Notes: a model not told the origin generated them from the letters alone. A stretch of 52,473 bases of DNA from a virus (IMGVR_UViG_2541047750_000003:1-52473); one strand, 5' to 3'. Positions 3,978-50,357 are shown, numbered from the stretch's first letter. Made by a program: numbers and translations.

Positions 3978-3995
3978 TATGTTATTGCCTCCGGT

Positions 3996-5114
3996 TTACA
4001 AAATGGAATATTCAGAGTAATAAACAAAGCGCCCAATTTCCCCATGATCCGGGCTGTAAATAATCACCGCTGCCAGACGCCGCGACCGCCAGCCGCCATT
4101 AGTTGAATATGCGTCTTTGCCAGCTAATGTGCCGTGGTGCTCAACTATTCCAAGTGATGTTTCAACAACTGATTGATGGTGCAGATGTCCAGTGTGAGCG
4201 TAAACAGCCACAGACCTCCCGAAATCCTCCCGCCAGTCAGATACGCAAGCCGACAATAAATTTTCCGGCTTTTTGATAGTGTGCCCGTGGTGGTAAGCAA
4301 GGAATGTTTTGCCGTACTGTGTGTGGTGGACGATAGCAGGGGACACATCAACAGTTACGCGCGGTTCATCTTCGTAAAAAGCCGCCAGCGCCGCACGTAG
4401 CCAAATCATGCCAGACTGATCGTGATTGCCTGATAGTACCTGGATTTCAATATCCTTATGATTTAACAACATCTTTCCTACCGCCCGACGTACCGCTCGG
4501 ATCGCTACATAGACAAGTTTTGCATAGCGTGAATCGCAATCCAGTACGTGATTGCTTGATGGCGTAACTGGCAACAGCCCGTCAGTGTGAAGAACATCCC
4601 CACCGAGAAGCAAAACAGCTTTTTCAGACATCGGCGCAGCGCCCACCGCGTAGTCAAAGAATTCATTCAACACGCGTTCAGCGATCCCAGTGTCGTAGCT
4701 CTCGCCGCATTCAGCTTTATGAGCAAGCGCCCCGATATGCAGATCAAATACCGGATAAAGGGCCAGGCTTTTTTGAAAATCAATTTCAGGCACTGGCACG
4801 GCCTCCGCGCGTGGTATTTCTTCCGTGAATGCGTCGCGGGCAGCTTCCATTAGCCTTTCCATTTCATCACGGTCACGGGCAGTTTTAATCCAGCGCATGA
4901 CCGTATTACCAGCCTTATCGACAAGAACAGATTCACCAGTAACGCCAAAACCAGGCGCGCGACGCGTTGATATTAAACCGCGTTTCGCCAGTTTTGCGCC
5001 TAGCCGCTCGACGTTGCGTTTTGACATGCCATATTTTTCAGCGATCTGCTTGTACGTTAAACCGTTGTTATATTCAGCGATCAATTGCTCATCGCTGATT
5101 TTTCTTTGCGACAT
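3996..5114 (-). CDS. HTH domain fused to calcineurin-like metallophosphoesterase (372 aa)
   Basis: N-terminal HTH (LTYKQIAEKYGMSKRNVERL); ordered phosphoesterase motifs DLHIG, GGDVLH, GNHD, GHLHH; GAGGAA RBS; sits where a helicase loader or O/P-type protein would be. Confidence 0.6.
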   Translation of the reverse strand: MSQRKISDEQLIAEYNNGLTYKQIAEKYGMSKRNVERLGAKLAKRGLISTRRAPGFGVTGESVLVDKAGNTVMRWIKTARDRDEMERLMEAARDAFTEEIPRAEAVPVPEIDFQKSLALYPVFDLHIGALAHKAECGESYDTGIAERVLNEFFDYAVGAAPMSEKAVLLLGGDVLHTDGLLPVTPSSNHVLDCDSRYAKLVYVAIRAVRRAVGKMLLNHKDIEIQVLSGNHDQSGMIWLRAALAAFYEDEPRVTVDVSPAIVHHTQYGKTFLAYHHGHTIKKPENLLSACVSDWREDFGRSVAVYAHTGHLHHQSVVETSLGIVEHHGTLAGKDAYSTNGGWRSRRLAAVIIYSPDHGEIGRFVYYSEYSIL

Positions 5115-5147
5115 AATGTTATTTCCTCATGTTTACATTTTGTATAT

Positions 5148-6071
5148 TTATTGACAGCAAACAATCTCTTTATATGTTTCTTCTACCATGTCGAATACTT
5201 CCGGCCTGTAATAAAAAAATTCAGTGCTACCATCAAACTTAACAGGGAAGTTTATTTTATAGTCACTGAAAGCATCGTGCATTTTGCTTTCTATTTCCTG
5301 CATAATCTCAGTAGGCCCATTCCATGTTTTAACTACCTGTAAATCAGTCAGCCTTACACCTGCCTTACGAGCACTTTTAAATACTCTGTTCCTCCTTTCG
5401 TTCTCTTTTACGCTTACACCAATTTTCATTTGTGTAGGCACTTCAAGATCATCAACCATGATGTAAAGTTTTCCGTTGTAGTGTGATAAAAACCCGTATT
5501 TAGCGCATTTCGGGCAACCGCGCCCGCTCTTAATGTCTCTAGGTTTAGCCGACCACTCATGATCACAAACCTTGCAGCGGCATAATACTTTTGTACTGTT
5601 ATTAACTATTTCAACCAGCACTTCAATATCAGGATTAACCTTAGCAATAGCCGATATTTGTTCTTCATGCGATATTTTTTTGCCTTGCGCTCGTTTTAGC
5701 ACCGCACATTTCTGGCAACCGCTCCCGATCTTAAGGCTTTTAGGTGTAGAATACCACTCATGATCACAAACCTTGCAGCGGCATAATACTTTTATTTTGT
5801 CGCCGGTAATTTCCCCAAGCACTTCAATATCAGGATTAACCTTAGCAATAGCCGATATTTGTTCTTCATGCGATAACTTCATATTCCCAGCGCATTTCTG
5901 GCAACCACGTCCATATTTAATATTGCTAGGTGTAGCCGACCATTCATGGTTACAAACTTTGCAGCGACATAATACTTTTGTACTGTTATTAACAATTTCC
6001 CCTAACACTTCAACATCAGGATTAACTTTCGCGATAGCTGCAACTTGTTCTTCATGTGTTAACTTGCGCAT
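5148..6071 (-). CDS. protein with three tandem zinc-ribbon-like repeats and a C-terminal T5orf172/GIY-YIG-like domain (307 aa)
   Basis: Three ~65-aa repeats each with CRCKVC...GCQKCA (C-x-C-x2-C ... C-x2-C); C-terminal KLYIMVDD...KIG...EFFYY segment resembles T5orf172; AAGGAG RBS. Confidence 0.55.
   Translation of the reverse strand: MRKLTHEEQVAAIAKVNPDVEVLGEIVNNSTKVLCRCKVCNHEWSATPSNIKYGRGCQKCAGNMKLSHEEQISAIAKVNPDIEVLGEITGDKIKVLCRCKVCDHEWYSTPKSLKIGSGCQKCAVLKRAQGKKISHEEQISAIAKVNPDIEVLVEIVNNSTKVLCRCKVCDHEWSAKPRDIKSGRGCPKCAKYGFLSHYNGKLYIMVDDLEVPTQMKIGVSVKENERRNRVFKSARKAGVRLTDLQVVKTWNGPTEIMQEIESKMHDAFSDYKINFPVKFDGSTEFFYYRPEVFDMVEETYKEIVCCQ
5480..6070. repeat. three ~195-bp tandem direct repeats inside the CDS
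   Basis: Long near-identical blocks, e.g. cacttcaatatcaggattaaccttagcaatagccgatatttgttcttcatgcgata at ~5619 and ~5820, with a diverged third copy ~5940-6060. Confidence 0.7.
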
Positions 6072-6210
6072 CGCTCCAACTCCTTAAGAACATCATGCGC
6101 GCTACAACGCAAAAACCCACCGCGACACCCGTTTGCACAGGTTGCAGTGTCTTATTGCGTCAGAGACGCCATCAGGTGGCTAATTTTCGATTTACAGAAT
6201 GGTAGGTAGG

Positions 6211-6312
6211 TTATGGATTGATTAGCAGGTACAGACCGCCGAACAAGGCGACGTTAACAGCGATTGCCGCAGCGATGGCAAAAGCCAGGGCGAAAACGTG
6301 TTTACCGTCCAT
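6211..6312 (-). CDS. small hydrophobic protein (33 aa)
   Basis: MDGKHVFALAFAIAAAIAVNVALFGGLYLLINP with GAGAGG RBS, in the otherwise ORF-free 375-nt gap. Confidence 0.25.
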   Translation of the reverse strand: MDGKHVFALAFAIAAAIAVNVALFGGLYLLINP

Positions 6313-49943: not shown

Positions 49944-49948
49944 AAATA

Positions 49949-49974
49949 ACCCCGCTTTGCGCGGGGTTTTCTTT
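49949..49974. terminator. bidirectional terminator after the J-like gene
   Basis: ccccgc-tttgc-gcgggg flanked by A-run and T-run. Confidence 0.6.
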
Positions 49975-50222
49975 TAGTAGTTAGCTACACAATTCGACGG
50001 GCTACCGATGCGGCGCATATTGTGATCTAGTTCATGACACCATTGACCAGTATATGGAAGTTTTTCAGTGTCATAGACAAGATGACCATTAGCATCATAG
50101 ACAATTTCTTGAGGAATTACTCCGCTATTTGGCAGGTTGTGCAATGCAGCATCTTTGTCAACAGCACAACCAGTAAGAGCAACAGCCGCAGCGAATAATA
50201 CCACTTTGAGCATGTTTTTCAT
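49974..50222 (-). CDS. moron lipoprotein (82 aa)
   Basis: MKNMLKVVLFAAAVALTGC: signal peptide with lipobox LTGC; opposite strand, directly downstream of J-like gene. Confidence 0.6.
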   Translation of the reverse strand: MKNMLKVVLFAAAVALTGCAVDKDAALHNLPNSGVIPQEIVYDANGHLVYDTEKLPYTGQWCHELDHNMRRIGSPSNCVANY

Positions 50223-50316
50223 TTTTGAATCCCCATTCTCGTTAGCTCGCCAGGTTCATCCGGTGGCTTAAATATCCGACAAAACAACATTTCGTATATT
50301 GATATAAATCAATAAA

Positions 50317-50357
50317 TACATTTTGTATAAGCCAGAAATGTAACACAGATCACAAAA
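50317..50357. promoter_or_regulatory. divergent regulatory region with TACATTTTGTATA and the 14-mer CACAGATCACAAAA
   Basis: 14-mer 50344-50357 identical to 38294-38307. Confidence 0.5.

Follow-up and report, generated by a model that had tools for sequence, protein, structure and literature searches.

The 52,473-nt stretch of viral DNA analysed here, IMGVR_UViG_2541047750_000003:1-52473 (hereafter the window, taken at its full length), carries a short word, TACAAAATG, that recurs in both orientations and in widely separated places, and the question raised by these copies is which protein, if any, reads them. A first-pass annotation had proposed a binding site for a phage or host regulator, with a cI-like protein as a named candidate, or else a promoter element. 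Our analysis indicates that the copies most probably mark dyads that serve as operators of the window's own CI/C2-type repressor, Rep, with binding deduced from comparison of sequences. We computed the enrichment of the sites, their location and conservation, the dyad pattern of their variation and their link to one repressor clade, and these results are presented below together with the alternatives on which each of them bears.

Judging by identity to known phages, the window is an E. coli prophage of the mEp021/mEpimmI family: its tail and head region is 85-88% identical to mEp013, mEp021, MagusPhagus and related isolates, and its early region is 90-96% identical to prophages of about 35 complete E. 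coli genomes. The mEpimmI phages have been described as Nus-dependent, non-lambdoid temperate siphophages with one common immunity, and are reported to be as common as lambdoid phages in human gut E. coli (PMC11893012). The same work showed that the repressor Rep021 confers immunity (plasmid pRep021) and described three nut sites, the placement of nutR2 included (PMC11893012). N-like and Q-like antiterminators are both present in the family.

Throughout, sites were assigned as coding or intergenic from the PGAP and mEp021 annotations, by which the window is about 90% coding; a gene map built greedily from open reading frames (ORFs) was set aside because of spurious ORFs in promoter regions. 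Conservation was followed in 43 IMG/VR relatives, and the number of relatives counted varies from site to site. Complete family genomes compared for clusters of sites number four, the window and three others.

A sharply defined word enriched between genes

Exact copies of TACAAAATG number 15 on the two strands of the window, against 0.78 expected from dinucleotide shuffling (maximum 5, with 0 of 100 shuffles reaching 15) and 0.75 expected under a second-order Markov model, and the word tops over-representation among both the 9-mers and the 10-mers of the window. The over-representation noticed in the first-pass annotation thus survives correction for composition. At the same time, variants with one mismatch are at background (19 observed, about 21.6 expected, no overall enrichment), and the core is therefore sharply defined. 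Of the 15, twelve lie between genes or at a gene boundary (binomial P≈3e-10 at 10% non-coding), which bears out the earlier impression that most lie in intergenic or promoter regions; the coding copies at 22896, 30623 and 40781 do not have the flanking features of the intergenic ones. The TACAAAATG motif is also the longest word common to the two early-promoter regions that flank the repressor gene rep. As for the individual copies first listed, their coordinates were correct except at 43133-43143, where an indel variant, TACCAAAATGGA, stands in place of an exact copy; exact copies at 1041, 22896, 30623 and 40781 had been missed. The inverted pairs described at that time are real, with members 25 bp apart at 38246/38271 and 64 bp apart at 16493/16557.

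Genomes of mEp021, MagusPhagus and the M15 prophage hold 11, 15 and 12 copies, respectively, and copies are conserved at orthologous positions in these three as well as in the 43 relatives. Density in the 43 relatives is 0.354/kb, compared with 0.016/kb in unrelated phages that share only a replication-protein domain with the window. This contrast bears on the host-regulator part of the earlier proposal, by which TACAAAATG would be bound by Fis, OmpR, CRP or another protein of the host. Some resemblance can be found: G-N2-TA-CAAAA-TG is similar to what we take to be the Fis consensus, GnnYRwwwwwYRnnC; TTTACATTTTG is presumably the start of the OmpR C1 site; and matches to TGTGA-N6-TCACA, which we assume to be the CRP consensus, lie near three of the island promoters described below. 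However, unrelated phages of E. coli and enterobacteria show only background density of the motif, the motif follows the repressor clade over Klebsiella, Erwinia, Enterobacter, Salmonella and Vibrio hosts, and its strict core, with a C in an A/T-rich centre, is unlike the degenerate sites of Fis, which makes a host-protein site scarcely credible. TyrR, CpxR and GalR half-sites were rejected along with the Fis, OmpR C1-like and CRP sites (all considered by consensus sequence) on the same two grounds of background density in unrelated phages and association with the repressor clade. An RNA-level element was rejected because some copies point with transcription and others against it, and nut sites or a Q-binding element were rejected as well, the nut boxA/boxB elements being separate and downstream and the early promoters carrying the motif too.

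A dyad that accompanies the repressor

The full site is a 13-bp dyad, (A/T)TAC-N5-GTA(T/A), in which the spacer of the family is usually AAAAT and the window form reads ATAC-AAAAT-G(T/G)A(T/A). That TACAAAATG is the centre of such a dyad can be seen because outgroup phages carry xTAC-N5-GTAx dyads. Neither the dyad nature of the site nor its genome-wide dispersal had been recognised in the earlier reading, whose proposal of a regulator site is nevertheless supported.

Rep (8065-8712, + strand), the proposed binder, has an N-terminal Cro/CI-type helix-turn-helix (HTH_3, 1.5e-12) and a C-terminal S24 (LexA-like) domain (Peptidase_S24, 5.8e-19; both Pfam), the architecture of a repressor of this type. 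It is 92-98% identical to the mEpimmI repressors, and its homologues in unrelated phages show 38-51% identity. The repressor of Klebsiella phage KPP5665-2 is 51% identical to Rep, with a very similar helix-turn-helix; in the cro-rep gap of this phage an exact TACAAAATGGAA lies over the cro-side promoter TTTACT-17-TATTAT, and downstream of rep CCGTTTTGTA abuts the -35 of a TTGATC-17-TATTGT promoter, in an orientation opposite to that of the window site at the early promoter PR. Erwinia Midgardsormr38, Enterobacter ENT1, Vibrio phage P2 and three IMG/VR loci (L050-L052) each have three spaced xTAC-N5-GTAx dyads in the cro-rep gap, as does KPP5665-2, and Salmonella phage L has three dyads at OR and more at OL, including an exact ATACAAAATGTAC. 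The repressors of Midgardsormr38, ENT1, Vibrio phage P2, phage L and L050-L052 are 38-45% identical to Rep over the whole protein, and the N-terminal domains of the outgroup repressors are 40-60% identical to that of Rep, with an invariant His-Trp in the region of the recognition helix. The arm bases are not uniform over the clade, reading, for instance, TTAC...GTAA in Vibrio phage P2 where other members have ATAC...GTAT. It is this evidence, from six lineages with a homologous DNA-binding domain, that points to the cI-like repressor named in the first-pass annotation. The record for phage L has no operators annotated, within the literature that could be searched the sequence does not appear as an operator of any phage, and no close solved structure was found for the DNA-binding domain of Rep.

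The same comparison is informative about a second possibility, namely that the sites are bound mainly by another phage regulator, either the protein at the Cro position (7592-7837, - strand) or the winged-helix-like proteins of the left operon. Cro classically shares the operators of CI, gene 3996-5114 has weak matches to Pfam families of the helix-turn-helix type, and the dispersal of the motif is specific to the family, as are the candidate proteins. Yet the Cro-position protein of KPP5665-2, the one outgroup protein of this position compared, is unrelated to that of the window, with no similarity detectable, while the sites are the same, and the N-terminal domain of the repressor is the sole component common to all seven dyad-bearing lineages. 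A different regulator as the main binder is therefore very unlikely; binding by such a protein would be compatible with, and not exclusive of, operators for Rep.

A weight matrix was then available from the outgroups themselves, symmetrised and built from 16 outgroup sites only (training sites score 6.7-16.2 bits). Its best matches in the window are the TACAAAATG copies, at up to 17.6 bits. The matrix gives 18 window matches at or above 11.5 bits where 2.5 are expected, and 10 at or above 14 bits where 0.5 are expected; of the 18, 14 lie between genes or at their boundaries (P=2e-11), and about 260 kb of unrelated tail-gene loci contain 3 matches. It also adds sites that are absent from the 9-mer search, at 8016-8028 (PL/PRM) and at 8849 (PR -10), and when weaker intergenic sites are added to the 18 strong matches the window total comes to about 22. 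Four pairs of sites are 24-25 bp apart centre to centre (8824/8849, 12935/12959, 38246/38271 and 43106/43131). Counted as clusters, the sites occupy 16 places in the window, 12-14 in the three other family genomes and 3 in KPP5665-2, where four of the five matrix matches are within the immunity region. In the 43 relatives the arms of the dyads are retained and the spacer drifts.

Two observations from the matrix search fall outside this pattern. KPP5665-2 (L130) has one operator-like site outside its immunity region, at 35423-35435, upstream of the lysis genes, which hints that limited dispersal of operators may occur outside the mEpimmI family too. In the window, high-scoring sites at 29602, 33407, 40778 and 1723 are unconserved in mEp021 and Magus, and were treated as chance or lineage-specific. 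The one at 33407-33419 is a perfect dyad, ATAC-ATAAT-GTAT, that overlaps the translation start of the major capsid gene (ribosome-binding site and start codon); M15 has this dyad as well, and its absence from mEp021 and Magus makes it probably a chance or lineage-specific occurrence.

Candidate operators at the early promoters

The leftward early promoter PL has a -35 of TTGATT at 8005-8000, a 16-bp spacer and a -10 of TAAACT at 7983-7978, and the boxA of nutL follows downstream at about 7901-7889. Over its spacer and -10 lies the candidate operator TTACAAAATGGAA (7981-7993), kept in 26 of 43 relatives, the others having spacer variants such as TTACAGAATGG. A second candidate operator in the PL/PRM region, ACACGTTTTGTGA (8016-8028), is 35 bp from the first and reads ATACATTTTGTGA in eight relatives; by analogy with lambda OR2 at PRM, it may stand near -42 of a possible, weakly assigned, leaderless promoter for rep. 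On the other side of the repressor gene, PR (TTGACT-17-TATATT, 8836-8864) is among the two best sigma-70-like sites in the first 18 kb of the window, both of which directly adjoin a copy of the motif. The candidate operator ATACAAAATGGAT (8824-8836) abuts the -35 of PR and has a core that is invariant in the family alignment, and 25 bp away TTACGGGGCGTAT (8849-8861) covers the spacer and -10. The latter has perfect arms, TTAC-GGGGC-GTAT, and in relatives the arms are kept and the spacer varies (TTACGTGGCGTAT, TCACAGGGCGTAT). Footprinting by conservation is uninformative in the immunity region because conservation there is 90-100%. Palindromes rich in A/T adjoin the operators, ATTTTAA-N9-TTAAAAT at PL/PRM (7993-8015) and TATAAAATATTTTAAA upstream of PR (8803-8818), and could be bending or UP-like elements.

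Such close contact with promoters brings up the remaining part of the earlier proposal, that the motif is itself an element for RNA polymerase, either as a spacer and -10 block, CCATTTTG-TAtAaT, or as an UP-like A-tract upstream of the -35. When reversed, all 12 intergenic copies run into a -10-like hexamer (CATTTTG-TAtAaT), compared with none of the three coding copies, and at PR and 43131 the motif occupies the position of the proximal UP subsite. However, the G abuts the hexamer at -13 (CATTTTG-TAnAnT), which is not the canonical TGn of an extended -10; a TG at -15/-14 is found only in the indel variant TTTTGgTATGAT at 43133. As promoter elements, the copies at 5136, 8825, 9504 and 16494 would point antisense, a dyad in one and the same place with respect to the -35 has opposite orientations in the window and in KPP5665-2, and the three-site arrays of the outgroups cannot all be -10 elements. 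Variation among the relatives, too, has the pattern of arms and spacer and not that of a -10. Overlap with a -10 is normal for operators, and a role as promoter element therefore holds only in a secondary sense, in that the sites overlap -10 hexamers or abut -35 hexamers as operators do; as a primary role we consider it very improbable. Another reading of the sequence, as a 434-like ACAA-N6-TTGT site, was rejected as it fits PR only.

A predicted third early promoter and the tail-gene islands

Beyond the immunity region, a candidate operator pair, ATACATTTTGTAT and ATCCGTTTTGTAA, with members 24 bp apart, lies in the gap after gene 12290-12910 (12935-12971); 30 of 34 relatives keep the 12935 site and 36 of 36 the 12959 site. 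The perfect dyad ATAC-ATTTT-GTAT is found at 12935 and again at 50316. Further along, the candidate operators TTACAAAATGGCG (16493-16505) and ATCCATTTTGTAT (16557-16569) flank a hairpin; 36 of 41 relatives keep the first and 40 of 43 the second. The 16557 site covers the spacer and -10 of a promoter, TTGTTA-16-TATACT (16545-16572), that lies just upstream of the boxA-like sequence of nutR2, TGCTCTTTAAAAA (about 16587-16599), and in relatives the -35 and the operator of this promoter are kept while its spacer changes. All three nut sites thus have in front of them a promoter with a candidate operator. The place of this promoter immediately before nutR2 suggests a third early transcription unit rather than mere re-use of PR transcripts at nutR2.

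In the late region, dispersed sites occupy the divergent gaps next to four islands of reverse-strand genes, which break up the run of tail genes. The candidate pair ATACAAAATGGAG and AGACATTTTGTAT (38246-38283), 25 bp apart, has each site over a TATAAA -10, and the two divergent promoters face leftward to 37566-38063 and rightward to the tape-measure gene at 38322. An alignment of six genomes over the gap upstream of the tape-measure gene shows both cores and the adjoining -10 hexamers to be invariant, while the 17 bp between them varies, and this pattern holds where the tape-measure proteins of relatives are only 65-75% identical. (With the tape-measure protein as anchor, two family loci, L135 and L136, were the only ones obtained, because the protein is too variable.) In the divergent gap before tail gene 41269 are the candidate operators AGCCATATTGTAA (41170-41182) and ATACAATATGTAA (41242-41254), the first of which is overlapped by a promoter-like GTCACA-16-TACAAT (41203 to 41176); an orthologous site in this gap is present in L135, L136, mEp021 and M15. 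At 43106-43143, a leftward promoter, TTGATC-17-TATATT (43131 to 43103), has the candidate operator ATACATATTGTAA on its -10 and the indel variant ATCCATTTTGGTA directly next to its -35, and in this it repeats the layout of PR; the island it faces includes, by annotation, a KilAC antirepressor gene. Finally, CAACATTTCGTAT (50285-50297) and a second ATACATTTTGTAT (50316-50328), candidate operators 31 bp apart, lie in the divergent gap between a lipoprotein gene (49974-50222, - strand) and tail gene 50400, with orthologous copies in mEp021, Magus and M15.

The four islands are bracketed by strong GC-rich hairpins at 36835-36850, 37541-37558, 40542-40560, 41824-41844 and 49948-49968, four of which are called as terminators on both strands and one, 37541-37558, on the + strand only. 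Since terminators bracket the islands, late transcription must read through or restart after each of them. Upstream of leftward island promoters there is also a recurring block on the minus strand, TTTTGTGATCTGTGT(T/A), at about 50353-50368, 38288-38303 and 43150-43165, which resembles what we take to be the CRP site, TGTGA-N6-TCACA. In Magus, L135 and L136, a third candidate operator, TCACATTTTGTAT, comes after the 38.3-kb copy of TTTTGTGATCTGTGT; in the window this operator has decayed. At the other end of the genome, the copy ATACAAAATGCCT (1040-1052), downstream of ninB, is a weak half-site (score 8.0, kept in 12 of 37 relatives) and is probably weak or non-functional.

Single sites and module junctions

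Some candidate operators stand alone at gene junctions. A second instance of TTACAAAATGGAA (3996-4008) lies at a mosaic junction between gene 3996-5114 and the start of the helicase gene (3977), and is kept in 39 of 40 relatives, with at least three unrelated flanks on one side. At another mosaic junction, between gene 3996-5114 and a variable cargo slot (5148-6071), the site TTACATTTTGTAT (5133-5145) is kept in 17 of 33 relatives, with at least four different flanks. The third, ATACAAAATGTAA (9503-9515), is directly 3' of the stop codon of the N-like gene (9213-9503) and 20 nt before a small ORF (9535-9654); it is kept in 42 of 42 relatives, with variants such as ATACATAACGTAA that differ in the spacer only. 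A further dyad, ACACGAAGTGTAT (7016-7028), is intragenic, in the replication gene 6446-7498 (- strand) near a domain breakpoint at about residue 160. It is exact in mEp021 though the flanks are only 35/73 identical, and relatives match the replication protein only at residues 1-139/154 or 162-350.

These positions would suit a different explanation, in which the copies are junction microhomology, spread or kept by recombination for module exchange, and serve for binding nowhere but at PL and PR. Those at 3996, 5133 and 7016 are indeed at mosaic breakpoints, with one flank unrelated between genomes. But most of the dispersed sites are paired at 24-25 bp and lie over promoter hexamers, and conservation of the arms with drift of the spacer argues for selection on a binding site and not for simple copying. 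Moreover, an essential regulatory site that anchors module boundaries would also give an association with junctions. Recombination without binding is thus highly improbable as an account of the copies. If they are operators of Rep, the conserved sites may themselves be the points at which exchanged modules are joined; alternatively, a module may carry its regulatory ends along when it moves.

The gene starts at 3978-4010, 5110-5147 and 9503-9540 have a near-identical leader, TGTAAAC-N2-3-GGAG-N2-AT-N-ACAT(T/A)ATG, fused to the operator, and the block common to the three leaders looks like a reused regulatory and ribosome-binding cassette. The cargo slot (5148-6071, - strand) encodes DUF4379 treble-clef zinc-finger repeats and a CapR homology domain, with a weak, sub-threshold T5orf172 match (E=0.004); relatives have other genes in this slot, mEp021 one for a zinc-ribbon protein and M15 one for a DUF559 protein.

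Discussion

The operators, taken together, suggest the following mechanism. Rep dimers would bind each dyad through the N-terminal helix-turn-helix, and sites 24-25 bp apart would be bound cooperatively through the S24-type C-terminal domain, as in lambda CI. Rep on a dyad over a -10 or against a -35 would exclude RNA polymerase, since the dyads overlie or abut these hexamers. The predicted operator clusters comprise PL/PRM, PR, the promoter before nutR2, the divergent promoters beside each of the four islands and the single junction sites, and with operators at 12-16 places Rep alone would directly shut off all autonomous promoters of the prophage; at the single junction sites it could form elongation roadblocks or anchors for looping. 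We infer binding by Rep, its cooperativity, the repression of promoters and the function of the single sites from the patterns described above. The more complete picture, of a lambda-type repressor with a genome-wide operator network that includes a nut-linked promoter, the island promoters with their antirepressor operon and junction roadblocks or anchors, and with dyads that double as recombination joints for modules and domains, is a tentative one, and we regard it as possible rather than probable.

Several points weigh against even the simpler proposal that the dyads are operators of Rep. The sites at 3996, 5133 and 9503 are without a convincing promoter to control; in eight of the 15 exact copies the right arm is imperfect, reading GGA or GGC and not GTA; and the cro-rep region (7838-8064) has only two recognisable dyads, compared with three in the outgroups. 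A near-uniform AAAAT spacer is not required of an operator, and spacers vary in the outgroups, so the uniformity may be due to an extra constraint or to recent spread. Cro-type proteins usually share operators with CI, and the Cro-position protein may for this reason bind the same dyads too. The family members found all carry the same repressor, the replication-protein query having returned only Rep-bearing relatives and unrelated phages. Finally, the published account of the family gives immunity by Rep021 but no operators or promoters (PMC11893012).

For the mEpimmI phages, this work offers a concrete candidate for the operator and places about 20 candidate sites on the genome, and it predicts a third early promoter before nutR2, as well as control by Rep of the antirepressor island and of promoters at which tail-gene transcription restarts. 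The dyad model extends to a wide clade of repressors from enterobacterial and Vibrio phages, for which it likewise predicts operators, and the work suggests that conserved operators may mark points of module exchange. If the proposal is true, a lambda-type repressor would be combined with a scattered layout of operators so far known from unrelated repressors, P1 C1 and that of mycobacteriophage L5.

Comparison with known repressor-operator systems

The immunity systems of phages lambda, P22 and L share with the window the architecture of the CI/C2 repressor (helix-turn-helix and S24 peptidase) and dyad operators, placed over the -35 and -10 of the early promoters that flank the repressor gene (here 7981, 8016, 8824 and 8849). 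Adjacent sites are about 24-25 bp, or some 2.3 helical turns, apart in all of them, as in four pairs in the window, from which cooperativity would follow by comparison, and phage L and five other lineages use the xTAC-N5-GTAx dyad. The operators of lambda, P22 and L are confined to OL and OR. Those of the window are not, and family genomes have 12-16 clusters each, compared with 3 in KPP5665-2. There are two cro-rep sites in the window, not three, and nearly all of its strong sites share the spacer AAAAT. In contrast to lambda, where the repressor gene lies between divergent PL and PR, rep of the window is co-oriented with the PR operon.

In layout, the window resembles the stoperators of the Cluster A mycobacteriophages L5 and Bxb1, which are 20-30 repressor sites distributed genome-wide, mostly in short intergenic gaps and some within operons away from promoters (PMC6550527). 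The number of sites (18 strong ones, about 22 with weaker ones) and their spread through the genome are the same. Stoperators, however, are asymmetric 13-14-bp sites, non-cooperative, co-oriented with transcription and mostly not at promoters (PMC6550527), whereas the window sites are dyads, often paired at 24-25 bp and mostly promoter-like, and the repressor is of the S24/LexA type. The orientation of the core is mixed in both arms of the window genome, and only the sites at 3996, 5133 and 9503 look free of promoters.

Phage P1 offers a parallel within E. coli: its C1 repressor has 22 dispersed operators, asymmetric 17-bp sites of the form ATTGCTCTAATAAATTT (PMC8546580), so that one repressor acts on many scattered transcription units, as is predicted for the window. 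The operators differ in sequence and symmetry, and the window repressor is of the HTH_3 and S24 kind. P1, moreover, is a plasmid prophage without an N/Q antitermination cascade, while the mEpimmI family has the N-like and Q-like antiterminators. By its sequence features, then, the window is of the lambda/P22/L type in protein architecture, site symmetry and promoter overlap, with a layout like that of stoperators and P1 C1 but without their defining features, and what is unusual about it is the dispersal of the proposed operators over the genome.

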